DNA of 52,565 nt. Source: Spirochaetaceae bacterium (GTDB lineage Bacteria; Spirochaetota; Spirochaetia; Treponematales; Breznakiellaceae). The stretch is taken from positions 1 to 52,565 of the forward strand of contig JAITNZ010000098.1 of the NCBI GenBank assembly GCA_031290205.1, in the 5' to 3' direction. Each line of letters opens with the position of its first letter. The stretch's first letter is position 1. Under the pieces are notes generated by a model. It was not told the DNA's origin. It did no database searches and saw nothing but the letters and a program-made list of their open reading frames with translations. This document shows, in pieces, positions 1,297-24,590 of the stretch. The position numbers were made by a program, and so were the translations under genes.

Positions 1297-2030
1297 TACC
1301 CTCCAGCGCCTCCCGCACTTATGCTGCCCCCGCGATTTTAATCGCGGGGCACGGTCGGGCGGGGGAGGCTTACCAGAAAACAGGCGCCCATTTCCTAAGC
1401 AAGTCGTTATCCTCCTCCGCTGCCCTTATTGCCACTTAGGAAAAGCATTGCCCGAATGCCGGCGAATAGCCGGCTAAAGTTGCCTCCCAGCGAAGTTTTC
1501 TGGCAAACCTCCCCCGCCCGACCGTCTACGTCAGCAAATTCCCCCTTAGCATAAGTGCGTGAGGGCTTCCCGACCTACTGGCTAGGTGTTGGGGTTATTG
1601 GCTAACAGTGAAGACCTACAGTAAAACCCAACGGTAAAGTGCGCGGTAACGAGTATGGCGGTGAGCGCTGGCGCGTCCGCGCTTGTGCCGCCGAGCGAGA
1701 AAGCCGTCCCCCTGCCTAAGTGCGTGAGGGCTTTTCGGACGAATTGGGTGGGCGTTGGGGTTAACGCCTTACAGTGAAGGCTTTAGAGTAAGCCCCCTAT
1801 CAGTAAAACGCGCGGTAACGAGGATGGCAGGAGCGCGGGCGCGTCAGCGCGCGTGCCCTGACCGAGAAAGCCTTCCCCCAAACCTCCCCCGCCCCGCCCA
1901 ATGAATGCGCCCGAATGGGCGTTGTTGCGGCTAATCGTTCATGGCGTGGCGCAGGACGCCCTAACACTACCAGTAATTGCAGGCTCACCTTGAGGTGAGC
2001 CTGTGTGCCGCCACCCCAACTAAGCATGAA
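1291..2030. repeat. Composite intergenic repeat, locus A (module 1 with a 9-bp hairpin, two ~165-bp tandem units, module 3 with a 10-bp hairpin)
   Basis: Module 1 (1291-~1400) recurs at 24618-~24725 and inverted at ~35990-36114. It contains ccccgcgat-ttta-atcgcgggg (1328-1349). Units starting taagtgcgtgagggctt at 1552 and 1717 recur at 24973, 25130 and 25352. Module 3 (1880-2015, hairpin aggctcacc-ttga-ggtgagcct) recurs at 24815-24950. Confidence 0.85.
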
Positions 2031-2033
2031 GGC

Positions 2034-2062
2034 TTGACACTCAGCCGTCTTTCGGTAAAAAT
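2034..2062 (+). promoter_or_regulatory. Candidate promoter for the island operon (TTGACA-16/17-TAAAAAT)
   Basis: TTGACA at 2034-2039 sits at the right edge of repeat locus A. An A/T-rich -10 candidate lies at 2056-2062. About 110 nt upstream of the ATG at 2174. The -10 is ambiguous in A/T-rich sequence. Confidence 0.35.
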
Positions 2063-2173
2063 AATAACAAACAGATGATAGTATGGGGAGCGGGGACTAT
2101 TAAAAAATATCAGGGGAATGTTGGTAAAATTTCGTTGGCGGACATCCAGCGCAAAAAGATAAAGGAATATACA

Positions 2174-3577
2174 ATGAAAAACTTTGGACGGTTCAGCCGT
2201 TTTTTTGCTTTTGTTGCCGTTTTTTCTGTCGGCACACTTATTTCATCGTGCGGCATTGACCCGTGCTATATTGGAGTAGCAGACAATCCGGAAGAAAGTG
2301 TTATTGATTCCGAATTGCAGGTAAATTACTTTTTCGACAGAACGGAATCGCTTGGGGGCTTTACTCAAGACGGCAAAGAAACGACTTACGGCCGGGCAAT
2401 CGACAGCACCCTGACGGTAGGGCAAACACTTGGCTACGAAACTACCTCGTTTTATGAATTTGGCGAGGCTGTTACCTGCAAATTATCATTTAACACGCTT
2501 ACGATGCAAAAAGAGATAAAAAAGAAAAGTTTTTACGGAGACGGTTATACCTACCAAAATGACAAAAACCGCACGGTCGTGTACGAGAACGAAAGCCAGC
2601 CCTTTAGTTCCGTTGTCGATTATATCAAAACCGAGACTGATAAAAACAGCTTAAATATTGTGGTAACTGATTTATATGAGCAGTTTGGCATTAATCAATA
2701 TTTTCATCTTTTATTTCAAAACGCCTTTCGGAACGGACTCTCTGGCGCGATTTTTGCCGTTCAATCCGAATTCAAGGGTAACATCCACAGCATATCATCT
2801 TCTAACGATAGTCTTTACGGTGTGAACGGTTATTCAACCTTTTTTCTTTTAATTACAGGAGACAAGGACACCATAGAGAAATACGGCACTGGTCTTTCCG
2901 AAGAACTTAAAGGAAAAAAAATAAAATTCAATTACACATTGTTTTTACCTGGAGGCGTTTTTTACAAAGGAGAGAAAAAACAACCAGAGTATCGAACGAT
3001 CGGGAATGAAAAACAATTTCAAGCTGCGAGCGAAAGGCATATAATGGTAAACCTTAATCCGGCAGGACAATTTATACAACGCTGGAAGAAAAAGGGCGGC
3101 GCTTTTGTTCCGGTTAAGGCAAATGCTGAAGGCTACTTGGCTGTAACAAATATTGATTCGCAATATGTATATAAAGTTCCTTTTGGCAGCGATGACGATT
3201 CCAGTCCTACCGTCCTGAATATGATGGTAGAATATTTTAACGGTAGGAAAACCCCGCCCGGAAACGCATCTCGTTTTGAAAAAATTTCAGCAAGTGGCAA
3301 AATTGAAGAGGCGCTTGCCGATAAAACAGACGGTTTTAATTATATAAGCATAAAAATCCATAACAAGAAACTTGATAAAGGATATTATAGAGTAAACTTT
3401 GATATAATACCTGATTGGGTAAACGCTCTTGACGCAAATGTTGCTGAATTAAAAGCAAGCAATAAACGGGGTGAGCTCGTCAAAGTGCTTAACTTGAAGT
3501 TAATATATGACCGTATATTAAAAGAATTTAACAAAATTGACGGTTTTTCAGAAGTTTTTTATATTGTTAAAAATTAA
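2174..3577 (+). CDS. Island gene 1: lipoprotein of unknown function, possible vWA-like fold
   Basis: Long ORF in ~33% GC DNA. Start trimmed to the ATG at 2174 (AAGGA 7 nt upstream), giving MKNFGRFSRFFAFVAVFSVGTLISSC, a signal peptide plus lipobox. NYFFDRTESLGGF resembles a D-x-T/S-x-S MIDAS strand and NIVVTDLYEQ resembles a vWA beta-4 strand. These are motif-level resemblances only. Confidence 0.85.
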   Translation: MKNFGRFSRFFAFVAVFSVGTLISSCGIDPCYIGVADNPEESVIDSELQVNYFFDRTESLGGFTQDGKETTYGRAIDSTLTVGQTLGYETTSFYEFGEAVTCKLSFNTLTMQKEIKKKSFYGDGYTYQNDKNRTVVYENESQPFSSVVDYIKTETDKNSLNIVVTDLYEQFGINQYFHLLFQNAFRNGLSGAIFAVQSEFKGNIHSISSSNDSLYGVNGYSTFFLLITGDKDTIEKYGTGLSEELKGKKIKFNYTLFLPGGVFYKGEKKQPEYRTIGNEKQFQAASERHIMVNLNPAGQFIQRWKKKGGAFVPVKANAEGYLAVTNIDSQYVYKVPFGSDDDSSPTVLNMMVEYFNGRKTPPGNASRFEKISASGKIEEALADKTDGFNYISIKIHNKKLDKGYYRVNFDIIPDWVNALDANVAELKASNKRGELVKVLNLKLIYDRILKEFNKIDGFSEVFYIVKN

Positions 3578-3607
3578 AAAAGCACTTGGTATTTTTAGGA
3601 GAATAGT

Positions 3608-4126
3608 ATGTTCGGAATATTTTTTAAGTCCTCATGGAAAGCGCTGCCTTTTATTGCGCTGTTGCCTCTTTTAGTTTGTGTATTGTATATTACCGTGATT
3701 GACCCCTACGGCGGTATCCTCATTTCGGGAATGGGGAGTGAAGCGGTAAGCGATCATCAGTGGGAATTTCAAGAGAGCGAGAAAACATTTTTCGGATTTA
3801 ACGACCATCTAGGATTTCAATCAATAAAAAGAAGTATGATACTCGCAATGGTAGTGAATCTTATTTTGTTGATGATCATTCCATGCGCCTTTGGCGGAAC
3901 TGTTTCCGGAAAAAAAAGGGCGCAGTTTTATTTGGGGTTTTTCATCAATTTAGCGATTTGTTTAGGATTCCCGATTTATTTTAATACTATCTTCGTGCTC
4001 GATGCAAGCACTCTTTTCATGCTTATAGCGCTACATCTTGCCGGTTTTATGCTGCCGTTTATTTTAGGCGCTTTATTCGTGGCGCCGGCTTATAAAATGG
4101 CTTTTTGGTTCATTAACAGAAGATAA
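3608..4126 (+). CDS. Island gene 2: small integral membrane protein (about 4 TM helices)
   Basis: AGGAG RBS 8 nt upstream. Four hydrophobic segments (ALPFIALLPLLVCVLYITVI, MILAMVVNLILLMIIPCAFGG, FYLGFFINLAICLGFPIYF, LFMLIALHLAGFMLPFILGALFVAPAY). 30-nt gap from gene 1. Confidence 0.8.
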   Translation: MFGIFFKSSWKALPFIALLPLLVCVLYITVIDPYGGILISGMGSEAVSDHQWEFQESEKTFFGFNDHLGFQSIKRSMILAMVVNLILLMIIPCAFGGTVSGKKRAQFYLGFFINLAICLGFPIYFNTIFVLDASTLFMLIALHLAGFMLPFILGALFVAPAYKMAFWFINRR

Positions 4127-4146
4127 CAAATCAACAGGAGCGAACA

Positions 4147-7100
4147 ATGTCAACATTACACATTATTGGAATCGGCGGAACAGGGCATAAACTTATCACA
4201 GCCTGTATTCATCTGGCTGCGTGCGGCGCGTTTAAGGGTAAAGGCACGAACGACATTAACTTGATACGCATGATAACTATTGATGCGGACGATTCAAACG
4301 GCAATCTTTCACACGCCAAACAGGTAGCTGCTTCTTACCATAAATTTTATTCGGTACTCGGTCAATCACAAACTCTCGGTCTTGTGGAGATACAGCCTTT
4401 AACAAGCGTGAGGCTCTATCAAAACGATAAAAAAAGCATAAACGAAACATTTAACATTGCACAGTACCGCGATACGGATACGGATAAGTTTGTTCACTTC
4501 CTCTATACCAAGGAAGAAATCGAGACTCAATTTGACCAAGGATTTTACGGGCATACGTCAATAGGCACTTTGATTGTAAAAAACATCCTGAAACAAGATG
4601 AAAACTGGCAGGGTTTTTTATCAGGTATATATGAAAATGATTTTGTGTTTGTACTCGGTTCCATTTTTGGGGGGACGGGCGCATCCGCAATACCCGTTGT
4701 GCTTGACGAGCTTAAAGAGCGGCAAAAGGAAGACGCGATCAAGTATGCGGCATTGATACTTACCCCCTATTTTAATACGATTGGCGACATAAAAGAAGAA
4801 GGTGTATTACAGCCGGATTCTAAAAATTTCCAGGTTAAAGCAAAAGCAGCCCTGTATTATTATGAAAAAGAAAAACAAAACGAAAATGCCGACGCAATAT
4901 ATATAATCGGAGAACCCAAGGAAAACTTTTCAAACGAAGCCGCCTCGCGCGGTGCGTCTGATCAACTTAACAAAGCTCACATGGTCGAACTGTTTGCGGC
5001 AAGCGCGATAATTGATTTTATTAAGTATGCTAACGACAGACCAAAACAAAAAATTATCACCGCTGAGCGGGAAACATTGAACGGTGAATACTATTATACA
5101 TGGAATATGCTGCACAAGATTGATGCTCTTTTGCCGGAAAAAATAAAAAAACTGATAAAGGCGGCTATTTTTTATAACAAGGTGCTGTACCGGGATTTGA
5201 TCAACAATGATGAAAAATCTGGAACATGGATAGGAAATTACAATAAAGAGTTGCTTTCGAGGATAGACGACGACCAAAATCTTTTATACGAAAATATTTA
5301 TGCGTATTTTACAAAACTCATCCGGTGGTTTTACGATTTGCATAAAAGAAATTCAGCGGAAATAGACCAAAATTCAGGCAGACCGAAATGGTCTGACGAT
5401 AAAAGGGCAAAGCTCTTTCACGCCGAATACTTGGCGCTTTTTGACGAAAGTAGCGTTCAAGGATCGGACATTAAAGATTTTGAAAAGTTAGTCTATAACG
5501 ATGAGAATCCGAAAAAGTCCGAAAAGATTTATGTCCAGATTTGTAGCGCTAAAGGCGCCGGATTTATCCCGCTTTTTGATGCTTTGGATGCCGCAATAAC
5601 AAGCAAAAAACGCGGCTTGTTTGATCCTAAACCCGAAAAAATCCCGGAAAATTTTACTATCGTTCCTTATTTATCAAAGGAAAACAATGCGAGCTTTACG
5701 AGGCAAAATGCCGATACTAACCAGCTCTGGTCATATTCCGAGTCGTCGCTTCTAAGCAAAATTGCAGACGGACTCCCCTTTGTCTTAGGCGATGAATTTA
5801 CAAAAGACGATATTTCAATTCCTTCACCATGGTCTATATTTATTAGTAATGAATTGACATTGACAGAAAAAAAGTTTGCGGGATTAAATAAAACTTCCTA
5901 TAATCAATGGTGCGGTTTTTTAGCATTGCTTGCGCTTAGAAAACTGCGTCGTTATGAAAACGATGGTTTGGAGTTAAAACAGCTATCCCTTGATGATGGA
6001 GAGTTTGTAAAAACCGTAGGGGACACATGCATCCCCTATAGTTTTATTTTTGATAATCGGCAGTGGACTACTTGTTGGAATATTTCTCTTGACGGGGAAA
6101 CCATAGGCTTCCTTGCGGTGAATACGATTGTTTGTCCCGCCTATTCGTTTTCCGCAAAAACCAAAACAAAACTTCATCAAATGGCTCCCAGTATAGTAAA
6201 CGAAAATGGTGAATTTTTAAGTCCCGACAACTATTTTGCCGACCAGAGTCAAAGAGTAAACCGCGATGCTCGGTATGCCCTCTCTATTTTCTTGTCCGAG
6301 CTCAAGAGAATAATACGAACAGAGGCTGCCACGAATGAAAAACCAATTATCAATTCTTTGCAACACCTCATAGAAAAGTTTATTGAAAGCTTAGGTAGAA
6401 CAAGCTCAAACCCAGATATATCAATACCTAATTATCAGCCCCCCACTGATATTCGTGATCTTTTTGACAAATTAGACATACAGAGCAATGCAATAATAGA
6501 ATTACCATTCCGTCTTACCGGAACAAAAAAGAATGCTGTTTTAATTGGATTGAATGTTTGCGGTATTGGTTCTTCTACACCTCAAGCAGCCTCAATTTTT
6601 ATCACCCCCAATTACAAATACAACCAGATTAATGCAGATAGTATCCAGCAATTATCGGGAAACGATAAAGACGGGTATCTACTACTTTATGATATTGAGT
6701 TGCTTTGCGATACCATGCTGATAATTAAAAAAGACGATACTTCGGTATTTCATACTCTGTCAAACAACAACAGCTCGTTACCTGGCATTGATGTAATATG
6801 GCCCGTAAATGAGCGGCTGCTTGAATTGTATGACGCTGCACAGATCAACGGGATGCTGGGTATAAGTAAAAATGATGATACGTTTACCGTTTCTTTAGAC
6901 CTTAAATTGGCTTCGGGAAAAACTCATACTGTAACAAAAAGTTACAAGATTAAAAGCGGGGATTCCAATGCGGAAGACGCCGACAATTCGGGGTTTTGTT
7001 ATACGTTCGATAGGGAAAACCTGCCTTTGTGGGCAGTCTGGCCATACTCAGAAATATTAAACACCGAAGGCAAAAATACATGGAAGCGCTACAATTGTTA

Positions 7101-9087
7101 TTGTGCGGAGCTTAAACAGACCGGCAGTCTGAAGGTAATGGAAATTGATCCGGTGTTTCCTTCGGGCGACAAGATAAGCAATCAGGATGATGAAAAAAGG
7201 CTTTCGATTATCAGTACCGGACAGCGTGATATATATTACAAAAGGTATAAGACGCTTCCCTCGGCATTTAAATTTAAATTGAAGTATGATGCGAATATCC
7301 CTGCTGTTTACCGGGGGCTTGTTTTCCTTGAGCAAGCCAAGCAGTATCAGGCAGCTAATGTCGAATGGAATATAGGTCTTGATTTCGGAACCACATCTAC
7401 TACCGTTTTTTATACCACAAATTCCGCTGATTCTGCGCTTGAATTTCTCCAATTACTTACCGAATACACATGGAAGGAAGGTAATCCAAATCCGCAAGAA
7501 ACCAAAAAAATCGAGAATGATATGGTTGTTGTATGTAACAGTGGTGGAAGAGACTTACAAGATTTGTCGTACTATTTTATTGATGATAAATGCTTAAAAC
7601 AAAAAGGGTATATTACCGCATACGAACTCTTAGACACCACAGGGGGGTCTGCGGAGGATACGGTCTTTAAGTCGGGACGTATCTTCTGGCACAATGAGCG
7701 CAATCTTAAAATTGTTAATGCCACAGAAGGCAGGCGGGATAATCTGCAAACAAATATCAAATGGGATGAAAACCGCGATTACATAGGCAAGTTTCTAAAC
7801 CAACTTTTAACGCAAATAGTTTATAACGCAGCCAGTAAAGGTGTGCGTAAAATCAACTGTTTTTTTTCGTATCCTACGGCATTTAGTTTTAGAGAAAAAG
7901 GTCTTTTTCGCGATACGCTTGAGCGACTAGTTGAAGGCATCGAGGAGGATACTGGGGTTGAAATCACATTTAAGCCCGAAAACCTTATAACGGAAAGTAT
8001 CGCTGCGGCATTTTATTTTAGAAAAGATTCGCGGCACAGGCTTTTTCTTTGCGTTGATATTGGAGGCGGCACAAGCGATGTTTCAATCTGGACGCCTGAT
8101 GTAAATTTGTTTCAAACTTCAATTCGTTTTGCTTCGCGCAATATGTTTATTGCCCCGCTTGAACGGCTTCTTAAAAGAAAAAGCGTCATGGATGTGGTGC
8201 GAAGTCCTGATGTTGCAGACGGCATTCACACGATGCTTGAATACGGCGGCGGCGATACCCCCAATTCAAAAGATAAGATTAAATTCTTTATCGAAACTGT
8301 TCTATTTGAATATTACGATAAATTTAAACAAAGGCTGGATTCTCTTAAAGGCGAAGATGAACTCTGCTACAAAAACTTTAGATATTGTGTTTTTATTGCT
8401 TATTCTGCATTGTGTTACTATCTGGCAAATATCATCGTTTCATTATTAAAAGTTGGAAAAATTGATAACGATGTTACCGACCTTGTATTCGGGCTTTCCG
8501 GCAAGGGGTCCAAGCTGACAGATTGGATAAAAGAAATTTGCCCTAAAATTTACGAAGAAATTCAAAGCTTTATACTGGAAAAAACCGGAGTTTCAATTAA
8601 ATTCCGTCCGCAATTTTCCGCCGACTCCGCCAAGACAGAGACCGCCAAAGGGCTGATTTGTAATTTGGTAAACGGCAAACAGAAAGAATCAGGCGAAGGC
8701 GCGGAACCCATGATGTATTTAGGAAGCAGTATAGAATTGGCAAAAGGATCTGATACTCCACGTTGTTACAGCAAGGCTGATTTTGTTAATGTATATACGG
8801 ACGAGTTGATCAAAAATCCCGTGGAATTAAAAGTAAGCATAGACAGGGAACTGGCGGATTTCGGCGAGTTTTTAGATTTCTTTAACAGGCTTGCAGAAAA
8901 GACACGTGGGGAAATGCCGGAGATCTCAATTGATTGGTATCAAAAAAACAAAAAATCTTTGTGGAATCAAATAGAAAAAGTCTTTAACGACATCTTAAAA
9001 GATAAGCGTTTCGAGCCTCCTTTTATCGTCATAATCAAAGAATTTTTACAATTTTATACCGAGGAGTACTTGTATGAAAACAAATAA
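4147..9087 (+). CDS. Island gene 3: 1646-aa fusion of an FtsZ/tubulin-like GTPase domain (N-terminal) and an actin/Hsp70-like ASKHA ATPase domain (C-terminal)
   Basis: A 4.9-kb ORF in AT-rich DNA, with AGGAG RBS. N-terminal motifs: IIGIGGTGHK (aa 6-15), ITIDADD (43-49), GFYGHTSIG (132-140), GSIFGGTGASAIPVV (171-185). C-terminal motifs: NIGLDFGTTSTTV (1075-1087), LCVDIGGGTSDVSIW (1301-1315), LVFGLSGKGSKL (1446-1457). Domain calls rest on motifs, not on an alignment. Confidence 0.9.
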   Translation: MSTLHIIGIGGTGHKLITACIHLAACGAFKGKGTNDINLIRMITIDADDSNGNLSHAKQVAASYHKFYSVLGQSQTLGLVEIQPLTSVRLYQNDKKSINETFNIAQYRDTDTDKFVHFLYTKEEIETQFDQGFYGHTSIGTLIVKNILKQDENWQGFLSGIYENDFVFVLGSIFGGTGASAIPVVLDELKERQKEDAIKYAALILTPYFNTIGDIKEEGVLQPDSKNFQVKAKAALYYYEKEKQNENADAIYIIGEPKENFSNEAASRGASDQLNKAHMVELFAASAIIDFIKYANDRPKQKIITAERETLNGEYYYTWNMLHKIDALLPEKIKKLIKAAIFYNKVLYRDLINNDEKSGTWIGNYNKELLSRIDDDQNLLYENIYAYFTKLIRWFYDLHKRNSAEIDQNSGRPKWSDDKRAKLFHAEYLALFDESSVQGSDIKDFEKLVYNDENPKKSEKIYVQICSAKGAGFIPLFDALDAAITSKKRGLFDPKPEKIPENFTIVPYLSKENNASFTRQNADTNQLWSYSESSLLSKIADGLPFVLGDEFTKDDISIPSPWSIFISNELTLTEKKFAGLNKTSYNQWCGFLALLALRKLRRYENDGLELKQLSLDDGEFVKTVGDTCIPYSFIFDNRQWTTCWNISLDGETIGFLAVNTIVCPAYSFSAKTKTKLHQMAPSIVNENGEFLSPDNYFADQSQRVNRDARYALSIFLSELKRIIRTEAATNEKPIINSLQHLIEKFIESLGRTSSNPDISIPNYQPPTDIRDLFDKLDIQSNAIIELPFRLTGTKKNAVLIGLNVCGIGSSTPQAASIFITPNYKYNQINADSIQQLSGNDKDGYLLLYDIELLCDTMLIIKKDDTSVFHTLSNNNSSLPGIDVIWPVNERLLELYDAAQINGMLGISKNDDTFTVSLDLKLASGKTHTVTKSYKIKSGDSNAEDADNSGFCYTFDRENLPLWAVWPYSEILNTEGKNTWKRYNCYCAELKQTGSLKVMEIDPVFPSGDKISNQDDEKRLSIISTGQRDIYYKRYKTLPSAFKFKLKYDANIPAVYRGLVFLEQAKQYQAANVEWNIGLDFGTTSTTVFYTTNSADSALEFLQLLTEYTWKEGNPNPQETKKIENDMVVVCNSGGRDLQDLSYYFIDDKCLKQKGYITAYELLDTTGGSAEDTVFKSGRIFWHNERNLKIVNATEGRRDNLQTNIKWDENRDYIGKFLNQLLTQIVYNAASKGVRKINCFFSYPTAFSFREKGLFRDTLERLVEGIEEDTGVEITFKPENLITESIAAAFYFRKDSRHRLFLCVDIGGGTSDVSIWTPDVNLFQTSIRFASRNMFIAPLERLLKRKSVMDVVRSPDVADGIHTMLEYGGGDTPNSKDKIKFFIETVLFEYYDKFKQRLDSLKGEDELCYKNFRYCVFIAYSALCYYLANIIVSLLKVGKIDNDVTDLVFGLSGKGSKLTDWIKEICPKIYEEIQSFILEKTGVSIKFRPQFSADSAKTETAKGLICNLVNGKQKESGEGAEPMMYLGSSIELAKGSDTPRCYSKADFVNVYTDELIKNPVELKVSIDRELADFGEFLDFFNRLAEKTRGEMPEISIDWYQKNKKSLWNQIEKVFNDILKDKRFEPPFIVIIKEFLQFYTEEYLYENK

Positions 9088-10459
9088 GGTAGTTTTAATC
9101 TTAGCAACTTTATTATTTTTTATCAGTAATATATATGGTCAAGGGGCTGATGATGCACAGGATGTGCATCAACCAAGTAGTATAAAACAAGCGCCGCAAA
9201 ATGACGGGTCTCAAGGAAATACTGGGGAAACTGAAAGCACTGCAGGCAAATCAGGCAATGCCGGTGCACCTGTGCAAACAAGGAACCAAACAAATAATTA
9301 TGTACAACAGCAACGAAACTCCGCGAAAAGAAAAATTGATACTATGGTAAAAGATAATGAGTATGCAGAAAGCAGATTAGTTATGATTAATCACTTAAAA
9401 AGCGAGGCGATAAAAAGTATTGAAGATGCGCAATCCGAAGATATTGACGGTATTATTAACCGTTTTAAGGCTGGCATTGAAGAAATTCCAAGTAACACAA
9501 AAATAGAATCATTCGAGTCGGCGATAAATAACCATTTAAGAGTCGGCGTAAAATCCGACGATTATACCGTTTATAAACTAAACGAAATACAGAGCTTAAG
9601 AGAGGAATTCAAAAACAATATCGACTCATGGCAAAGCGTACAAAAAATAGAGGAGGAAATTAATAGAGTTATCAATGAAATAGACAAGATTCCGACTGCA
9701 AAAGAACAGGTAGACGAACTAATACAACAACACTTGAACGACAGAATAAGCACCATAGAAAAAGATATTGCCGAAAAGACGCCTTTTGAATTCTTAAAAG
9801 AACAAGCCATCGCGTTAGTAGGGGTTTTACTCGCACTGGCGATAGTTGCTTTATTAATTATACATATAAGAAAGGTAAAAAAGAATTTAGGCGATAACAA
9901 GAGTGATATCGACGCCAATCAAGTTGTTATCAAAGAAATACAAGAATGGATAAAAAATACTGACGAGCGGATTAACGAACAAAAATCGAAGTACCGCAGT
10001 CTTGAAAATAAAATTTCGGATAACGAGAATAGCAGTAAAAGAAATTTTGATAATTTAAGTAAAAATATCGAATTACAAAAAACCGCTTTGTCGAGCGAAA
10101 AAATTGCACCGGAACTAATACCCGATGATCCGGTAGATGATTTTAATAATTGGGCTTGTAATCCACTAAAAATACTCCCGTCACGTTTTTATTATCTAAA
10201 AGGTGATATTAAAGTAAGGAACGAACAGATTTTTGTAGAATCTGAGGCGGAAAGCAAATGGATTACAAACAGACTAGGAGCGCAAAAATACCTTTTCCCT
10301 AATCCGCGTTTTTTTTATGAAGCAACGGATATAAGGGAATTGTATAAAATAACGGGGACGTTAAAAGCGAAGGGGCAAAACAATATACGAATAAGCGAAC
10401 CCTGCAAAATACTCGATAAGGGTTATATTAATTACGCTGGTAAACTAACGTTGTTGTAG
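9074..10459 (+). CDS. Island gene 4: bitopic coiled-coil membrane protein with a conserved ~105-aa C-terminal domain
   Basis: Overlaps gene 3 by 14 nt. GAGGAG RBS. Sec-type signal MKTNKVVLILATLLFFISNIYG, then a Q/N-rich and helical region, then the TM ALVGVLLALAIVALLIIHI (~nt 9808-9870), then coiled-coil. The C-terminal domain (nt 10142-10456) is paralogous to nt 10848-11162. Confidence 0.85.
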   Translation: MKTNKVVLILATLLFFISNIYGQGADDAQDVHQPSSIKQAPQNDGSQGNTGETESTAGKSGNAGAPVQTRNQTNNYVQQQRNSAKRKIDTMVKDNEYAESRLVMINHLKSEAIKSIEDAQSEDIDGIINRFKAGIEEIPSNTKIESFESAINNHLRVGVKSDDYTVYKLNEIQSLREEFKNNIDSWQSVQKIEEEINRVINEIDKIPTAKEQVDELIQQHLNDRISTIEKDIAEKTPFEFLKEQAIALVGVLLALAIVALLIIHIRKVKKNLGDNKSDIDANQVVIKEIQEWIKNTDERINEQKSKYRSLENKISDNENSSKRNFDNLSKNIELQKTALSSEKIAPELIPDDPVDDFNNWACNPLKILPSRFYYLKGDIKVRNEQIFVESEAESKWITNRLGAQKYLFPNPRFFYEATDIRELYKITGTLKAKGQNNIRISEPCKILDKGYINYAGKLTLL

Positions 10460-10481
10460 GAAAATTGACACAGGAAACAAT

Positions 10482-11165
10482 ATGACTCCAGAAGCAGCGC
10501 AGCCCCAAACACAAAACATACCGATAAATAATACTCTCCAAGATAATGATATGCAAGCAATGGTGCAACTTCTCCAGCAAGTATCAAATCATTTCAAAAT
10601 TTGTCAAAGCAAGAAAAAGAATGAAATCAACGAAAAAGATTCCTATATATGGAGGCTTTCCGACGCATATAAAAAGTTGCAGCAAGAGAATGTTTCATTA
10701 AAAAATGAATGTAATAAAATAGAACAGGAAAAGATAAATTTATTACAGGAAAACAACAAGCTACGTCAAGAAAATTTTACTCTAAAACAAAAAAACAATG
10801 CGCCGCCTATAATAAACAATGTGGGGGATAATAATATAATCGTCGAATTTAACGCATGGGCGTCGAATCCGGTAAATCATTTGCCGGTAAGTTTTAAGTA
10901 TATAATCGGAGATATAAAAGTCCGAAACGAGCAAGCGCTCACGGAATCCTCTGTCGAAACCAAATGGATTACCAATAGGAACGGGAGCAAAACTTATCTA
11001 TTCCCCAATCCGCTTTTTTTTTACGAAGCAACAGACATAAGGGAATTGTATAAAATAACAGGGGCATTAAAAGCCAAGGGGCAAAACAAAATACAAATCA
11101 TCAAAGCATGTGAAATTCTCGATAAAGGTTATATTAATTATCCCGGAGAATTACAATTGATATGA
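10482..11165 (+). CDS. Island gene 5: soluble coiled-coil protein with the same C-terminal domain as gene 4
   Basis: AGGAA RBS. Heptad-like LQQENVSLKNECNKIEQEKINLLQENNKLRQENFTLKQ. The C-terminal 105 aa are about 70% identical (hand count 73/105) to the C-terminus of gene 4. Confidence 0.85.
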   Translation: MTPEAAQPQTQNIPINNTLQDNDMQAMVQLLQQVSNHFKICQSKKKNEINEKDSYIWRLSDAYKKLQQENVSLKNECNKIEQEKINLLQENNKLRQENFTLKQKNNAPPIINNVGDNNIIVEFNAWASNPVNHLPVSFKYIIGDIKVRNEQALTESSVETKWITNRNGSKTYLFPNPLFFYEATDIRELYKITGALKAKGQNKIQIIKACEILDKGYINYPGELQLI

Positions 11166-12766
11166 ATGAGCAAATAGTAATTGCGTATTCCGCATGGTTC
11201 CTGCTATGTTATTTAATTCCTTTAATCGTTTTTAATAAAAGAAATATAACGACAAAAGACATGATAAACCTTAGCAATCTAAAACTCCAAGCGGTATTTG
11301 ATAATCAAAAGGACAATGTTGTTTCAATAAGCAGCGACTTCCCAGGGTTTTTGAAAAATCTTGAAAAAACAAAGAACAATCTTGTGATTCGTATTCTGCG
11401 TCGTATGTGTAACGACGCTAAATCGGGGCTTAGGTTAAATCCTAATGTATATATTTTGAACTACAAAGATATGTGCCGGGGTTTTGTTTTTTATATATTT
11501 TTATCCGCGCACATTCCATTCATTGCTCTCTATCTTATCGACGCAGACTTTATTTCAAAATTAATTTTTATGCAATCAAGTTCCTATGTGCTTATTCTGT
11601 TGTTGAAAAAAAGCACCGACCATAAAACATCGCTGTTTTGCAAGAATTTTTACACTCATTGGTATGATAAGATTCTGAATTTCGATTTAATTGCTATAAA
11701 CGCGCTTAAACCTGCCGTTTTAAGCGCGTTAAACACCGAAATAAATAACAATCTGCTTGCCGCGGTTAAATCCTTTGCACAAGAGGACGAAGCCCAATTC
11801 AACAAGCTCGCTTTTGCCGCACAGGATTTATCATTACATTTAGAGAAATTTACCGAATTGCAAAATGGAAACGGAAGTATAACGGCGGATAAGATAACTC
11901 ATTCACTGGATAATATTCTAAAAAAAATTATTGAACTTAATGCTGATTTTGACAAAATGAATGGGGTTATGACTACTTCATTCTCGAATCTTGTTAGTAT
12001 TTCAGATAACAATAAACTTGATATTAACGCAATGAATCAAAATGCTTGCCTTTTACGAGAACTAAAAGATGCTTTTGTGTCATACCAAAGCGAAGCCTTA
12101 TCCCCGGCATTGGCTCATCTTCAGAAAATATCTTCCTCACTTGAAAATGATATTAGCAAAACTTTTGCCTCTATCGATACGACGATAAGTACGAATACCG
12201 AAAAATTACTTTCAAGTTACGAACGGTTTTTTGAAATTTGCGAAACATTTAACAAGTCTATGTCAGTTTATTACGAATCAGGCAATATTGATACGCTCAA
12301 ATCCTTAAACGAAACGTTCTTCGATGAACTTGAAAAGATTGGGAATCAAAACAGGGAAATACAGATTGCTTTTAAGAGCTGCTCCGATTCGACGAAAAAA
12401 CTTTGTGAATCAACCTATGATTTTGCCCAGTATACCAATTCTTCGGATTTTATGAATAAGATACGCAGCAACATCAATTTTCGAAAGCGCCTTAACGCTG
12501 CACAGGAAAAATTAGTATCTTATGAAAAAATTGTTAAGCTATACGAAGAGAACAGTGATTTATCCGCAGAGGATATTAAAAAACAATTTTATAATCTACT
12601 AAATGCACTTGAAGGTGATTTTAATACTCGCATACTTTATCTTGAAAATCGCTTAGATGCGCTCGAAGCACAGGCAACGCCCCATCGACAAACTCAGGGA
12701 CCGGCGCCAGTTGCTGAGCCTGTCGAAGCAATAGAAAATCCAGTCCCTAAAATAAATGGGCAGTAA
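11162..12766 (+). CDS. Island gene 6: polytopic membrane protein with a long helical cytoplasmic region
   Basis: ATGA 4-nt overlap with gene 5. Hydrophobic segments IVIAYSAWFLLCYLIPLIVF, GFVFYIFLSAHIPFIALYLI and SSSYVLILLL. About 350 aa of helix-rich sequence follow, then a Pro/Ala-rich tail. Confidence 0.8.
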   Translation: MNEQIVIAYSAWFLLCYLIPLIVFNKRNITTKDMINLSNLKLQAVFDNQKDNVVSISSDFPGFLKNLEKTKNNLVIRILRRMCNDAKSGLRLNPNVYILNYKDMCRGFVFYIFLSAHIPFIALYLIDADFISKLIFMQSSSYVLILLLKKSTDHKTSLFCKNFYTHWYDKILNFDLIAINALKPAVLSALNTEINNNLLAAVKSFAQEDEAQFNKLAFAAQDLSLHLEKFTELQNGNGSITADKITHSLDNILKKIIELNADFDKMNGVMTTSFSNLVSISDNNKLDINAMNQNACLLRELKDAFVSYQSEALSPALAHLQKISSSLENDISKTFASIDTTISTNTEKLLSSYERFFEICETFNKSMSVYYESGNIDTLKSLNETFFDELEKIGNQNREIQIAFKSCSDSTKKLCESTYDFAQYTNSSDFMNKIRSNINFRKRLNAAQEKLVSYEKIVKLYEENSDLSAEDIKKQFYNLLNALEGDFNTRILYLENRLDALEAQATPHRQTQGPAPVAEPVEAIENPVPKINGQ

Positions 12767-12781
12767 CAGGGTGAAACAATT

Positions 12782-13945
12782 ATGGAAAATATACCGCTCG
12801 TCATCTGTGGCGTTCCTCTAGTATTCGGGTTATTGAACTTATGTATTGAATTAAAATTACTCACCATAAGAAACAAACCGATACGGTATATTACCTCGTT
12901 TTTTGTTCGTGTTTACGATAATTGTTTTATTCCCCTCTCTGTTATAACAATAGTATATTACACGCTTACTATTTTTCTTGATGGCAAGAGTGGACTCTTT
13001 TTGATTTGTATCGGATGCTTTGTCTTAGCAGCATTTGTCATTAACACAATCAGGGAACGGACTTGTTTTTTTACTTCGCCCGACGACTATGAACCTCAAC
13101 ATAGTGAATATAAAGCCGCTTTTACCTTTATAGATACTTACCATGAAATAACAAAACTCAACAGAAATGTATTACAGGATATTGCGGAACGAAAAAAACT
13201 TTTGCATGATAAGCACAATGAACTCGAAAATCTTATTGCAACGGCAACTAAAAATATAAACAACTATGTAGTATTTCAACAAGAGGGATGTTCGCTATTG
13301 TTTGCCAAAAAAAAACAATGTGAAGCAATATATGTAATTCTGGAACAGACCGCTGAAAAGCTCAATGATACTTTAACAAAACTAGCGCAGAGACTGGAGT
13401 ATTCAGCGGCGGCGCTTTGCTACTACGGTGAAAGCGATGTTTTGATTAAAGACATCCATACTTCTTTTAAAGATGCGTATAATCAAAATAATGAAGAAAC
13501 TATGCGAAACATCGAAAAGATTCTATCAGATTTAAGCGTATTGGCATTCAAATGCGCCGACATTCAATCTTTTCCAAAATCGTATAATAATGCCATCAGT
13601 ATTTATTCAGGGAAAATAATGAGCGTATTACAAATGTTCGAGCGGGAAAGCACAGAGAACAAAGAACAGATAACACAACTCTGCACCGAAATCTTAGAAA
13701 AGCTTATCGGAAAAGAAAGAGAAATGGTTGAAGTAAATAAGAGGTCCATGGAATATATCCTCAAAAACAATTTTGTGCTTTCAAAGATAGCTCAAAGTTA
13801 TGATAATTCAATTATTGCTTTCAAAAATCCAAACATTTATAATTCGACATTACGCAGGCGAAAAACCTTTTGCGACAAGTGCGGCACAAAAATTGAAGAG
13901 ACACATACACGATGTCCGAGATGTGGTACTTCAATTTATGTTTGA
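12782..13945 (+). CDS. Island gene 7: membrane protein with a helical region and a C-terminal zinc ribbon
   Basis: 15-nt gap from gene 6. Three N-terminal hydrophobic segments. The C-terminus is CDKCGTKIEETHTRCPRCGTSIYV (CxxC-N10-CxxC). Confidence 0.8.
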   Translation: MENIPLVICGVPLVFGLLNLCIELKLLTIRNKPIRYITSFFVRVYDNCFIPLSVITIVYYTLTIFLDGKSGLFLICIGCFVLAAFVINTIRERTCFFTSPDDYEPQHSEYKAAFTFIDTYHEITKLNRNVLQDIAERKKLLHDKHNELENLIATATKNINNYVVFQQEGCSLLFAKKKQCEAIYVILEQTAEKLNDTLTKLAQRLEYSAAALCYYGESDVLIKDIHTSFKDAYNQNNEETMRNIEKILSDLSVLAFKCADIQSFPKSYNNAISIYSGKIMSVLQMFERESTENKEQITQLCTEILEKLIGKEREMVEVNKRSMEYILKNNFVLSKIAQSYDNSIIAFKNPNIYNSTLRRRKTFCDKCGTKIEETHTRCPRCGTSIYV

Positions 13946-13969
13946 AGTGCAATAAATGCATTTCCCCAG

Positions 13970-14248
13970 CTATAATGATGTTTCAAGGATATTCCTGAGG
14001 GCGCTCCCGCTTCCGCAGTGGGATTGCACAAGGGTAATCCCACGGCTTGCCGCTTCTTTGCGCGCGACTTTTGCCATATCATGTGAAACCGGATTCGTAA
14101 AAAGAACGATTAAATCCGGGTTCCCGATGAGGCAGTTCAAATTACATTTCTTCTGGGTAAACACCTTCGCCTTACAGCCAAATTCTTTACAGATGTCCTT
14201 ATACTGACAATGCATCCCATCGTGCCCACCGACAATAACTACACTCAT
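13970..14248 (-). CDS. DUF2325-like small protein
   Basis: 92 aa. AAGGAG RBS. MSVVIVGGHDGMHCQYK...DLIVLFTNPVSHDMAKVARKEAASRGITLV matches my memory of the DUF2325 pattern (ivGGhd...D.vi.ft..vsH). The flanking GC level resumes at this gene. Confidence 0.6.
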   Translation of the reverse strand: MSVVIVGGHDGMHCQYKDICKEFGCKAKVFTQKKCNLNCLIGNPDLIVLFTNPVSHDMAKVARKEAASRGITLVQSHCGSGSALRNILETSL

Positions 14249-14338
14249 TTTGACTCCTTTTTACCCACATTTGTAAGTATTAATTGCATATTTTCACCTT
14301 TTACTTGTTATTCTTGTTAGTTTAATCTAACAAAAGTT

Positions 14339-14367
14339 ATGTTAGAAGAAACTAACAAAAATGTCAA
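14339..14367 (-). promoter_or_regulatory. Candidate promoter for the DUF2325 gene (TTGACA-17-TAACAT)
   Basis: Minus strand reads TTGACA (14367-14362), a 17-nt spacer, then TAACAT (14344-14339). Confidence 0.35.
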
Positions 14368-14566
14368 TACTGGTGTCTGATTTGTATCTCGTTTCTTAAT
14401 CCGTTCGAGCCCTGGGAGTCGTAACACCTGCCTAGCAGCCTGTCGCTCTTCATCTGGGAAACACCCTGATAGTGTGAAAGATACCGGACAAAATCGGGGG
14501 ATTTGTTCATCTATCTTACCTCTTTTAAGTTCGTTTTGCACAGGGGGGGGAAGTGCAACAGGCTGC

Positions 14567-19654: not shown

Positions 19655-21322
19655 TCATTCCCACTGGTTCACAAACCTCACCCCATTGTTCCTCGCTATT
19701 TCAAAATTGTTTGCCCAGTCATCCGTGTTGCCCACAACCTTAACTTGGGGATTGCCACCAATTATCAAGAAGCTATTACCGGGGCTAAGCGTTTGACAGC
19801 TTATTTCGCCCATGTTGACGGAAGTCAAGCCATTGCAGTAACTGAGGAAGCTCTCGCCGATACCGCTAAGGTGCGACAGTGGGGACAGGTCAAGCGACTC
19901 CAATCTGCTACAAAAACTGAGGAAACAGCCGTTGATACTGGTAAGCTCCGACAGCGGGGTCAGGTCGAGCGATACTAAGTTCTCGCAATCATACAGAAAC
20001 CATGCGCCGATACTTGTAGAGTTCGATAGCGGGGGCAGGTCAAGCGCTTCCACGTTTACGCACTCACCCAGAAAGTAGTCGCCGATACTGGTAAGCTTCG
20101 ACAGCCGGGACAGGTCAAGCTCCGCCAAGCCATTGCAGCCAAGCAGGAAGTAGTCGCCGATACTGATAAGATTCGACAGCGAGGAGAGGTCAAGTGCTTT
20201 CAAGCTGCTACAGTATCTAAGGAAGTCGTTGCCGACACTGCTAACGTTCGACAGCTTTGACAGGTTCAGCGATTCTAAACTGGTGCAGTAACTCAGGAAG
20301 CCCTCGCCGATACCGGCAAGGTTCGACAGCGGGCTTAGGTCAAGCTCCACCAAGCTGGTACAGTTATACAGGAAGTTGTCGCCGATACGGGTAAGCTTCG
20401 ACAGCGGGGTCAGGTCGAGCAACTCCAAGCTGGTGCAGTAACTCAGGAAGTTGTCGCCGATACTGGTGAGCTTCGGCAGCGGGGACAGGTCAAGCAACGC
20501 CAGCCCATGGAACCCACTAAGGAAATTATCGCCGATAGTAGTAGCGTCCTCCACATCGCTGCCCCATATTATCTCATGGATATACTGCGTCTGGTACACC
20601 TTACCGTTAATCGTGACGCTGGATCTCTCCATGCACAGCATCGCCAGCCGTGCGTCCGCCGTCATACTGTCCATCGTCCAGTCCGCAAGCTTGCCCATGT
20701 TCACGATTTCGTCTTTCGAGGGGTCGTATGCCGACTCAGGCTCAGGATCCGGATCGGATGGCATAGCTGCCATCTTGCCGTCAGCCACCGATGGAGCCTT
20801 GTTGTCCGAATGCATACTTGTTGCCATCGGTGGGGGATCTGCTGTTTCGTTGTAGATAAAGCGCGTGTAGAGCGGCGCCCCATTCAGAGCCCAGTAGCGC
20901 GTAGGCGGCGCGACGCCCGGCGTGGCGATGCTTACCTGAACTATCCCGCCTTCGTCGTTGGGAACATTTGTTACCGTAAGCGAGTAAAGCCCCACCACCA
21001 ATTTTTTCACCTCGGTCGCGCTGATTCCAGACGAAGTCGAACCGTTATACACAAACGTGAATATTTTGCCTAAAGCGTCCGCCTTCAAATCGTCTGTTAA
21101 TCCGGGAATATCCCTGTCGAAGTCGAGCTCGAGGGTCGCCGTCCCTACTCCATCATCGAAGACCGGCGCCGAAGGCGTCAGTTTAATCCACATCGTCTTA
21201 GTCTGATTCAGATTTGACGTATCCGCAATCGCGTTGCAAGCGGATAGAGCAAGCGCGAATACGACAAGCAAAACGCTCCCTATTATTGAAAGATTTACTT
21301 TGCTTTTCATATTATTTTTCAT
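19655..21322 (-). CDS. BspA-type leucine-rich-repeat surface lipoprotein, paralog 1
   Basis: GGAGGAG RBS. Signal peptide plus lipobox LALSAC. About nine 25-aa repeats of LDLSPLSKLTSIGDxFLxxCxxLxx. The N-terminal and middle domains are shared with the two neighbours. Confidence 0.85.
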   Translation of the reverse strand: MKNNMKSKVNLSIIGSVLLVVFALALSACNAIADTSNLNQTKTMWIKLTPSAPVFDDGVGTATLELDFDRDIPGLTDDLKADALGKIFTFVYNGSTSSGISATEVKKLVVGLYSLTVTNVPNDEGGIVQVSIATPGVAPPTRYWALNGAPLYTRFIYNETADPPPMATSMHSDNKAPSVADGKMAAMPSDPDPEPESAYDPSKDEIVNMGKLADWTMDSMTADARLAMLCMERSSVTINGKVYQTQYIHEIIWGSDVEDATTIGDNFLSGFHGLALLDLSPLPKLTSIGDNFLSYCTSLELLDLTPLSKLTRIGDNFLYNCTSLVELDLSPLSNLAGIGEGFLSYCTSLESLNLSKLSNVSSVGNDFLRYCSSLKALDLSSLSNLISIGDYFLLGCNGLAELDLSRLSKLTSIGDYFLGECVNVEALDLPPLSNSTSIGAWFLYDCENLVSLDLTPLSELTSINGCFLSFCSRLESLDLSPLSHLSGIGESFLSYCNGLTSVNMGEISCQTLSPGNSFLIIGGNPQVKVVGNTDDWANNFEIARNNGVRFVNQWE

Positions 21323-21348
21323 ACGTTACTCCTCCATTCATTATCAAT

Positions 21349-22791: not shown

Positions 22792-22809
22792 TTTGGTCTC
22801 CTCCTATGT

Positions 22810-22925
22810 TTGAAGAAGGGTATGGGGGATGGGGAAAGATTTCACTTTGACCGCCACGGGCGGTTTCAACTACACCTCACACCTTATACCTCATTCCTCA
22901 CTCAATCATCACTCATCATTTTTCA
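22810..22925 (-). repeat. Heptad-word element with a conserved core hairpin in the LRR paralog 2 leader
   Basis: The minus-strand sense reads purine words (atgagtg, gaggtat), then ttgaaaccgcc-cgt-ggcggtcaa, then agtgaaatctttcccc, then C-rich words, then cttcttcaaa, then AGGAGGAG and the ATG at 22791. Confidence 0.65.
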
Positions 22926-22966
22926 GTCTTCACGTCACTGGGGGCTTTCCCCTTCGTCCTTCGCCC

Positions 22967-24472: not shown

Positions 24473-24486
24473 TGTGGCTCCTCCTA

Positions 24487-24590
24487 TGAATTCGATGGGA
24501 ACAGGGAACAGGGGAAAAAAGCACTTCGATCGCCATGGCGGTTTCAGCTTTGCCTTACACCTCATTCTTTATTCCTCCCCCGTCTTCATA
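24487..24590 (-). repeat. Heptad-word element (GGGAACA words) with the core hairpin in the LRR paralog 3 leader
   Basis: gatgggaacagggaacagggg...cacttcgatcgccatggcggtttcag...cctcattc. Collinear with the 22810-22925 element. Confidence 0.6.

Follow-up and report, generated by a model that had tools for sequence, protein, structure and literature searches.

Gene g3 occupies positions 4147 to 9087 (+) of a 52,565-nucleotide stretch from a Spirochaetaceae bacterium (contig JAITNZ010000098.1 of assembly GCA_031290205.1, analysed over its whole length and here called the window). It is very probably a real gene encoding, end to end, a tubulin-like GTPase of the Tubulin_2 type and a protein of about 1,100 amino acids (aa) that ends in an ATPase domain of the actin/Hsp70 (ASKHA) superfamily. 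Nucleoside triphosphatases (NTPases) of the tubulin and actin families make up the two great groups of cytomotive proteins; FtsZ and FtsA are a known case of the two cooperating as separate proteins. An original prediction, made from the DNA letters alone, had read the product of g3 as a 'Rosetta stone' fusion of members of the two superfamilies. AlphaFold2 models and Foldseek comparisons support this reading for both halves, and it is literally correct in that, in most relatives, two neighbouring genes each encode one of the parts. Averaged over its layers, from the identity of the protein to its role in the cell, we give our best explanation a probability of about 0.6: g3 would specify a composite NTPase that works as one membrane-docked complex, possibly within an envelope-linked conflict system.

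One reading frame, two nucleotide-binding folds

The reading frame of g3 is uninterrupted, with 1646 codons and an ATG start preceded by a Shine–Dalgarno sequence, AGGAG, at a spacing of 7 nucleotides; its stop codon overlaps the ATG of the following gene, g4. The open reading frame (ORF) is therefore intact as a single polypeptide bearing both motif sets, as had been proposed, and all seven motifs named at the outset (loops T1 to T4, phosphate-1, phosphate-2 and the adenosine motif) lie at exactly the residues then claimed for them. For modelling and searching, the protein was treated as an N part (aa 1–495) and a D part (aa 496–1646). Its features are as follows.

4147..9087, + strand: g3, a 1646-aa fusion of a tubulin-like GTPase module, a linker and a large actin-fold ATPase protein.
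4147..5607, + strand: N module, aa 1–~487, counterpart of the stand-alone Tubulin_2-type protein of ~500 aa found elsewhere.
aa 1–~316, within the N module: tubulin/FtsZ-fold GTPase core, with loops T1 (6–15), T2 (43–49), T3 (132–140) and T4 (171–185).
aa ~317–487, within the N module: family-specific alpha-helical domain, from the AlphaFold2 model.
5608..5814, + strand: fusion junction or linker, aa ~488–556, to which the stop and start codons of the split genes map.
5815..7353, + strand: helical and beta-rich domains at the N terminus of the large protein, aa ~557–1069, beginning at a conserved SIPSPW motif.
7354..8841, + strand: ASKHA ATPase domain, aa ~1070–1565, from Foldseek and motifs.
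ASKHA motifs: phosphate-1 (aa 1075–1087), connect-1 TESIAAA (~1282–1288), phosphate-2 (1301–1315), adenosine (1446–1457) and connect-2 AKTETAKG (~1495–1502).
8842..9084, + strand: C-terminal helical bundle, aa ~1566–1646, with AlphaFold2 helices at D-part residues 1075–1147.

Close homologues of the g3 protein (n = 56, 36–72% identity) are nearly all 1,650–1,710 aa long and, to judge from record names, come mostly from metagenome-assembled genomes (MAGs) of Treponema, Termitinemataceae, Syntrophomonadaceae, Tannerella and Bacteroidales. Conservation was scored in an alignment of 53 full-length homologues, with a mean column identity of 47%, and in wider alignments that add split relatives of 20–30% identity. 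Across the 53 homologues the T4 loop is invariant in the N part (G175-G176-T177-G178-A179-S180), as are D1079/G1081/T1082/T1083, D1304-I-G-G..D1311 and G1449/S1451-G-K-G in the C-terminal part. With the wider alignment, the N part had 22 invariant columns, 15 of which lay in its four motif windows (41 of 495 residues; hypergeometric p = 4.6e-13); the C-terminal part had 20, with 11 of them in three motif windows (40 of 1151 residues; p = 2.8e-12). This concentration of invariant columns shows that the motifs are not chance strings; the set is far beyond chance. The caveat originally attached to the tubulin signature is borne out: T4 reads F-G-G-T-G-A-S (aa 174–180), and the strict tubulin/FtsZ signature, [SAG]-G-G-T-G-[SA]-G, is unmet in g3, with deviations at the first and last positions that are consistent throughout the family.

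AlphaFold2 modelled the N part, with 102 homologues as input, at a predicted local distance difference test (pLDDT) score of 84.2 and a predicted template modelling (pTM) score of 0.90. Foldseek analysis against the PDB returned 213 matches at E ≤ 1e-3, and the top 50 were all tubulin, TubZ or BtubA, each with probability 1.0; the generic Rossmann domain named at the outset as a refuting outcome was not what emerged. The T1 (GxGxxG), T3 (GxxGxPxxG-like) and T4 loops are present in canonical order, and eight of their glycines (G10, G11, G13, G132, G140, G175, G176 and G178) are invariant in fused and split relatives alike; residues 5–204 of the Draconibacterium sediminis homologue align with profile positions 3–141. 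Beyond an H7-like helix (aa 279–294), the model predicts a small beta-meander and then the helical bundle of aa ~317–487, which replaces the C-terminal domain of tubulin and FtsZ. No FtsZ_C or Tubulin_C domain was found in the N module by Pfam, in the model or in the alignments, and a search of the alignments and model for a canonical T7 acidic 'synergy' loop after the H7-like helix revealed no invariant acidic residue beyond E281. The module ends at about aa 487, not at the boundary of ~330 aa first drawn.

Sequence profiles place the N module with the Tubulin_2 group by way of its relatives. The split N-module homologue of Microcystis sp. BLCC-F210 scored 38.1 bits against Pfam Tubulin_2 (PF13809), above the gathering threshold. 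Most of the 120 listed relatives, named 'tubulin-like doman-containing protein' by NCBI, have a precomputed PF13809 match, and the relatives that bear it align with the g3 N part over its whole length at 23–29% identity. Membership of g3 itself is transitive, not direct, since these split relatives pass the profile and g3 scores below it. In phmmer and profile searches of the PDB, CetZ and FtsZ matched near the T4 loop (E ~0.01–1), while the NCBIfam ftsZ model TIGR00065 gave an E-value of 0.17, far below its cut-off.

The D part was modelled with a pLDDT of 84.8 and a pTM of 0.76. Its top 50 Foldseek matches were all DnaK/Hsp70, MreB, BeeR, actin or ParM, with E-values down to 9e-9, so that the ASKHA similarity expected of the C-terminal region was found. 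Residues D1079/G1081/T1082, E1283-S1284, D1304-I-G-G, G1449..G1452 and K1496/G1502 are invariant or nearly so in alignments of fused and split forms. Sequence searches pointed the same way with lower scores: DnaK, MreB and FtsA matched near phosphate-2 in phmmer and profile searches of the PDB (E ~0.01–1), and NCBIfam gave DnaK and HscA at E 0.006–0.11 and ftsA at E 0.036, all far below cut-off. A Pfam scan of the C-terminal part of g3 matched nothing, and PF00012, PF14450 and PF06723 gave no match to the g3 protein. When 22 split relatives of the D part were scanned singly, weak Pfam matches to FtsA were seen in 14, to MreB in 11 and to HSP70 in one; the best E-values for FtsA and MreB (PF14450 and PF06723) were 5.5e-5 and 4.4e-5, both sub-threshold. 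Taken over the whole protein, the matches in Pfam, NCBIfam and the PDB are weak (E 1e-4 to 0.1) and consistent, not decisive; it was the predicted structures that decided the matter. The large partner is annotated 'hypothetical protein' everywhere and has no Pfam family.

Between the two nucleotide-binding regions, some 740 aa had been described as unrecognised. That stands in so far as aa ~557–1069 matched no family in sequence searches of Pfam, the PDB and NCBIfam, but the region is not featureless: it consists of a ~70-aa linker, with pLDDT below 57 at aa 490–495 and at D-part residues 1–64, followed by ~510 aa of well-folded domains that belong to the actin-fold protein. These domains were modelled with a pLDDT mostly of 85–94 and are conserved among the split D proteins.

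Several scores tell against the two fold assignments. Foldseek TM-scores for the N part are low (0.25–0.30), and those for the D part are modest, reaching 0.50 when normalised to MreB. The g3 protein itself falls short of both relevant Pfam profiles, with 22.9 bits against a cut-off of 33 for Tubulin (PF00091; E 1.1e-4, aligned over aa 118–203) and 12.4 bits against a gathering score of 27 for Tubulin_2. Modest TM-scores imply that both modules are highly divergent, and because the scores are low, the assignments rest on family-exclusive matches and motifs, not on close superposition.

Fused and split forms of the protein

A scan of one genome per species yielded 77 related loci. At about 60 of these the protein is divided between two adjacent, co-directional ORFs, the first of ~480–540 aa, aligning with query aa 1–~480, and the second of ~1,080–1,160 aa, aligning from query aa ~521–535 to the end. 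The junction between them coincides with the low-confidence segment of the models at aa ~488–556. Examples of split pairs are WP_013325769 and WP_013325770 in Gloeothece verrucosa PCC 7822 and the ORFs at L027 10001–11449 and 11461–14736 in Draconibacterium sediminis. A phmmer search with the D part against 1.84 billion cluster representatives gave 745 relatives at E ≤ 1e-3, 416 of them at E ≤ 1e-10, and these are mostly 1,000–1,200 aa long, that is, split.

Fused forms fall into three groups: the clade of g3; a deep sister, P0197 (1,758 aa); and a separate pair, P0236 (1605 aa) and P0298 (1341 aa). The D parts of this pair are 36–42% identical to split proteins and only ~25–30% identical to those of g3's clade. 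Because the nearest relatives of P0236 and P0298 are split proteins, the identities indicate at least one fusion independent of that in g3's clade; judged from these sequence relationships, fusion of the tubulin-like and actin-fold genes took place at least twice. Genes that stay side by side and fuse repeatedly are a classical sign of two subunits belonging to one complex, and the two enzymes, fused here and encoded by neighbouring genes elsewhere, would on this ground be expected to work together.

The g3 cassette and its distribution

g3 is the third of seven co-directional genes, tightly spaced or overlapping, that are contained in an island of low GC content. The island and the other six genes are listed below.

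2001..14400: low-GC island, GC 0.32–0.44 against 0.5–0.6 in the flanks, holding the seven cassette genes.
2075..3577, + strand: g1, a predicted lipoprotein of 500 aa with lipobox LISSC; the most conserved partner family of the cassette.
3608..4126, + strand: g2, a 172-aa membrane protein with four transmembrane (TM) segments.
9074..10459, + strand: g4, 461 aa, with a signal peptide, a coiled coil and a single TM segment, ending in a domain of ~100 aa that g5 shares.
10482..11165, + strand: g5, a coiled-coil protein of 227 aa that ends in the domain it shares with g4.
11162..12766, + strand: g6, 534 aa, its N-terminal region carrying three TM segments and its tail forming a long coiled coil, a topology resembling MotA/ZorA.
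12782..13945, + strand: g7, 387 aa, with three TM segments and a coiled coil, and at its C terminus a zinc ribbon (Pfam Zn_Ribbon_1, E 6.7e-6).

All six partners of g3 are thus membrane or extracytoplasmic proteins: a lipoprotein, a four-TM protein and four TM/coiled-coil proteins. With jackhmmer, the g1 family was recovered in 43 ORFs of related loci, at a fixed position ~1.7–2.3 kb upstream of the tubulin-like gene. Its consensus has the conserved lipobox cysteine and a pattern, DxSxSM...ITD, that resembles a metal ion-dependent adhesion site; at the level of motifs this suggests a very divergent extracytoplasmic vWA domain. No profile method confirmed such a domain: the sole vWA match in a profile search of the PDB was a weak one, to the integrin alpha-L I-domain (E 0.38). 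A four-TM protein of ~155 aa fills the position of g2 in nearly all related loci. g4 is conserved only within the fused clade, and g4 and g5 both match one and the same ORF in several relatives. Their common C-terminal domain (10136–10456 and 10842–11162; FNxWAxNP...YLFPNPxFFYEATDIRELYKITGxLKAKGQN...) has no family match in Pfam. As a homologue of MotA or ZorA, g6 is unproven: it matched PADLOC ZorA at only E 0.0075–0.017, on the coiled-coil tail, and hhalign comparison with the MotA-like family of split loci returned a probability of 3.5%. No OmpA/MotB-type component was found by Pfam among the seven window genes.

Outside the island lie housekeeping-type genes (a solute-binding protein, DUF362/Fe-S, CdaA and YbbR). 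Searches around it for tRNA genes, Rfam families, att-like flanking repeats, promoters and terminators gave nothing informative. Upstream, a GC-rich intergenic stretch (window 1300–1900) contains two tandem repeats of ~167 base pairs, at ~1549–1715 and 1714–1880, with segments 74–95% identical, and inverted copies at 1309–1381 and 1495–1564 that are 94% complementary; neither an Rfam family nor a tRNA was matched there. In the interval from the island's end to the DUF362 gene lies a near-perfect palindrome (14305–14367), with 31-nucleotide arms that are 81% complementary and 1 nucleotide apart. It holds two copies of TGTTAG..CTAACAAAA and could be an operator or a terminator.

The core order of lipoprotein, four-TM protein, tubulin-like protein and actin-fold protein is kept across phyla. 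Downstream genes vary by lineage and always encode membrane and/or coiled-coil proteins. At 14 or more loci, from Acidobacteriota, Bacteroidota, Cyanobacteriota and Clostridia, the downstream genes include one for a MotA/ExbB-type protein that has a long coiled coil, matches Pfam MotA_ExbB and is usually followed by an OmpA-domain protein; at one of these loci (L042) the MotA/ExbB-type protein matches PADLOC ZorA2 at E 1.1e-5. In Draconibacterium sediminis (L027, 16077–19251), MotA/ExbB/ZorA-like and OmpA/MotB-like proteins are accompanied by a transglutaminase-core protein, and at four loci (L079, L080, L082 and L083) a conserved protein of ~322 aa follows the OmpA gene. The cassette of Microcystis sp. 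BLCC-F210 (L028) has a 1,249-aa WD40 protein upstream and, among its downstream coiled-coil genes, a 252-aa small GTPase (L028 19094–19852) that scores 24.6 bits against a DO-GTPase2 threshold of 27 and is thus sub-threshold.

The family is rare and patchy, with members in the cyanobacteria Microcystis, Synechocystis salina, Xenococcus and Altericista, in Draconibacterium, Clostridia and Bryobacteraceae, in Pelagibacteraceae single-cell genomes and in others. Most copies are chromosomal. Plasmid copies occur in cyanobacteria, among them one on Cy782204, a mobilizable plasmid of 47.5 kb from Gloeothece verrucosa PCC 7822, and others on plasmids of three Picosynechococcus strains; a search of phage genomes found no such protein. 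The fused clade is common to MAGs of Spirochaetota, Firmicutes and Bacteroidota at 45–57% identity, and the record names match termite-gut surveys. This sharing across phyla, together with the GC contrast of the island, indicates that the g3 cassette has been horizontally transferred. Related loci occasionally have neighbours of defence type (Mrr_cat, a weak ThsB_TIR, Uma2 and SNase).

Two further gene groups were seen in the window. Wadjet-type genes at 27358–32811 (+), 13 kb from the cassette in a region of lower GC, encode JetA (PF18982, E 4.6e-106), JetB (DUF4194) and an SMC-like JetC. No JetD follows JetC, the next gene, at 32955–34055 (−), being a DPBB lytic transglycosylase; the Wadjet system of the window may be incomplete, or JetD may lie elsewhere. 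Three consecutive genes for BspA-type leucine-rich-repeat proteins (PF13306) occupy 19655–24565 (−).

Proposed role and comparison with known systems

We consider it probable that the tubulin-like and actin-fold NTPases form one obligate complex, with both sites active, docked at the membrane and undergoing nucleotide-driven assembly or switching. A single complex is argued for by conserved adjacency and at least two independent fusions, and the invariance of every nucleotide-binding motif predicts that both sites are probably active. The complex would be docked at the inner membrane through its TM/coiled-coil partners, and binding or hydrolysis of GTP and ATP would drive regulated assembly or a conformational switch. 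A treadmilling filament of the classical FtsZ type is improbable, since a helical bundle takes the place of the tubulin C-terminal domain and there is no conserved T7 loop.

What the complex does is a more tentative matter. We lean, at somewhat less than even odds, towards an envelope-linked conflict or defence system with a logic like that of Zorya, in which the extracytoplasmic lipoprotein and membrane or stator-like components would detect envelope perturbation, and assembly of the fused NTPase module would follow as the response in the cytoplasm. We favour this role on account of the cassette's mobility and patchy distribution, the component that resembles ZorA and the example set by tubulin/vWA conflict systems that have been predicted. 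A more specific and more speculative picture is that of a hitherto unrecognised envelope-spanning machine, with a composite, nucleotide-driven tubulin/actin NTPase assembly under the control of an extracytoplasmic lipoprotein sensor and, in most lineages, of a proton-driven MotAB/ZorAB-like stator. Were it correct, the cassette would represent either a new class of anti-phage or anti-plasmid immunity or a new hybrid prokaryotic cytoskeleton, with g3 as its natural single-chain form, a good subject for structural study.

A number of results pull the other way. None of the core genes matched in PADLOC searches of the seven window genes and the core genes of three split loci, and no recognisable effector (nuclease, TIR domain or pore former) was found in the cassette. 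g1 has no match to Pfam VWA, even at E ≤ 5, and homology between g4–g7 and the MotA/OmpA pair carried by other lineages could not be demonstrated. One lineage has the cassette at the same chromosomal site in three related genomes, which resembles vertical inheritance. Finally, for every member of the family it is we who infer nucleotide binding, interaction, assembly and role.

The same protein might instead serve a membrane-remodelling or cytoskeletal machine acting on vesicles, the envelope or the cell surface, with no part in immunity, as proposed for FtsZl1-vWA-OmpA operons (Makarova and Koonin, 2010; PMC2875224). We regard this as rather unlikely, though it is the alternative that best survives. 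The overall logic of the cassette matches the FtsZl1 neighbourhoods described in 2010, with possibly vWA-like, tubulin-like, membrane and MotB/OmpA proteins; all partners of g3 are membrane-associated, the PADLOC and effector searches were negative, and the site is kept in the three related genomes just mentioned. On the other side, a family that is rare and patchy, sits in a low-GC island, crosses phyla within one habitat and occurs on plasmids has the marks of an accessory or mobile system, although a non-immune accessory function also fits.

A motor for DNA or plasmid segregation, of the TubZ or ParM kind, is very improbable. TubZ and ParM are among the structural matches and some copies are plasmid-borne, but there is no TubR- or ParR-like DNA-binding adaptor, the partners are a lipoprotein and TM proteins, most copies are chromosomal and none is found in phages. 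Still less credible is a cell-division fusion, the counterpart of FtsZ joined to FtsA, its membrane anchor of the actin family. It would account for a tubulin-fold GTPase joined to an ASKHA domain whose weak Pfam matches favour FtsA and MreB; however, the N part groups with the Tubulin_2 type and not with FtsZ (ftsZ E 0.17, ftsA E 0.036), it has neither an FtsZ_C-type domain nor a conserved T7 loop, and the gene of this rare and patchy family lies in a foreign low-GC island near lipoprotein and TM genes and not in a dcw cluster. An Hsp70-type chaperone with a tubulin-like cofactor fares no better: DnaK is the top match by Foldseek and by PDB sequence search, and connect-1 and phosphate-2 resemble NEPTAAA and DLGGGTFDVS, but a substrate-binding domain is missing, the neighbours are membrane proteins with no GrpE or DnaJ among them, Pfam HSP70 matched one of 22 relatives as against 14 for FtsA and 11 for MreB, and unrelated domains totalling ~510 aa precede the ASKHA domain. 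An artefact, whether chimeric assembly, a frameshift-merged ORF or chance motifs, might be suspected because most relatives are split, but its probability is negligible: upwards of 50 homologues, each assembled independently and drawn from a range of samples and phyla, show the same continuous architecture of 1,650–1,710 aa, the motif residues are invariant and both halves are modelled confidently.

Whichever role applies to the fused NTPases, a widespread, uncharacterised gene pair links the tubulin and actin families, with 745 representatives of the actin-fold partner at 50% identity. It yields a testable prediction, that the two enzymes form one complex, and natural single-chain and split versions are available for experiment, biochemistry and cryo-electron microscopy. 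Tractable sources exist both on plasmids, in the Picosynechococcus strains and Gloeothece verrucosa PCC 7822, and on a chromosome, that of Draconibacterium sediminis. The annotation of the large 'hypothetical protein' partner, which lacks a Pfam family, is corrected to that of an actin-fold ATPase protein.

In the divisome, FtsZ, a GTPase of the tubulin superfamily, works with membrane-proximal FtsA, an ATPase of the actin superfamily. g3 resembles this couple in pairing the same two superfamilies, and its relatives show the weak Pfam FtsA matches, but the comparison first made with FtsZ and FtsA holds only as an analogy. g3 has specific homology to neither protein, lacks the FtsZ C-terminal polymerisation domain, a conserved T7 loop and the FtsA-binding tail, is encoded in an operon of membrane proteins and not in a division cluster, and is neither universal nor essential. 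The cytomotive filament proteins TubZ/PhuZ and ParM/MreB are structural neighbours of the two halves of g3; they are, however, single-domain polymerising proteins with adaptors of their own, whereas g3 joins both folds, and the literature searched yielded no known case of the two folds together in a single system or chain.

Zorya anti-phage systems consist of ZorAB and soluble effectors. In a similar manner, many split cassettes have, beside soluble cytoplasmic proteins, an OmpA/MotB-type partner and a MotA/ExbB-type protein whose cytoplasmic coiled coil is long. They differ in having no ZorC, ZorD or ZorE and in scoring far below a confident ZorA, and the window cassette has no demonstrable ZorA or ZorB. 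Conflict systems with DO-GTPase and GAP1-N2 proteins were described as having tubulin or HSP70 'themes', which were called non-overlapping (Kaur, Burroughs, Iyer and Aravind, 2020; PMC7159879). They are likewise predicted to be NTP-dependent, membrane-proximal and built from tubulin- or HSP70-family and vWA components. They are, on the other hand, defined by DO-GTPase, GAP1 and FNIII domains, none of which was detected by Pfam in the seven window genes, and DO-GTPase2 gave a weak match at only one related locus.

The closest known relatives of the cassette are the FtsZl1/Tubulin_2 group and its vWA-OmpA operons (Makarova and Koonin, 2010; PMC2875224), a group that Santana-Molina et al. (2023; PMC9871819) later took as a divergent outgroup. 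In FtsZl1 operons the tubulin-like gene stands beside genes for a vWA protein, a membrane protein and a protein of MotB/OmpA type, and membrane remodelling is the role proposed for them (PMC2875224). Like g3, FtsZl1 has a divergent tubulin-fold core with T1–T4 loops and no recognisable T7 loop or tubulin/FtsZ C-terminal domain, and both occur in operons with membrane proteins, a vWA or, for g3, possibly vWA-like protein and, in many split relatives of g3, a MotB/OmpA-type protein; both are patchy and uncharacterised. FtsZl1 proteins, however, are ~900–1,150 aa long and possess a coiled coil as well as a C-terminal alpha-helical domain, whereas the g3-type N module is ~487–500 aa long without a long coiled coil. 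Moreover, the g3-type tubulin-like protein is always followed by, or fused to, the actin-fold ATPase of ~1,100 aa, a partner not among the families of PMC2875224. The FtsZl1 operon of Magnetospirillum magneticum AMB-1 (amb2957–amb2961) ends in amb2961, a 1,626-aa protein assigned to COG0443, DnaK/HSP70, the single DnaK-like neighbour of this kind there (Supplementary file 5, PMC2875224), and this annotation hints that the linkage of tubulin-like and ASKHA proteins may reach beyond the g3 subfamily.

The original claim that g3 has no characterised precedent needs dividing accordingly. Its tubulin-like part belongs, by way of its split relatives, to a known, though uncharacterised, group, Pfam Tubulin_2 or 'FtsZ-like', and is not unprecedented. 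As to a pairing or fusion with an actin/Hsp70-like protein, no description was found in a full-text corpus that lacks much of the subscription literature, the nearest accounts being PMC2875224 and PMC7159879. The tubulin-like family and the general operon theme were already recognised.

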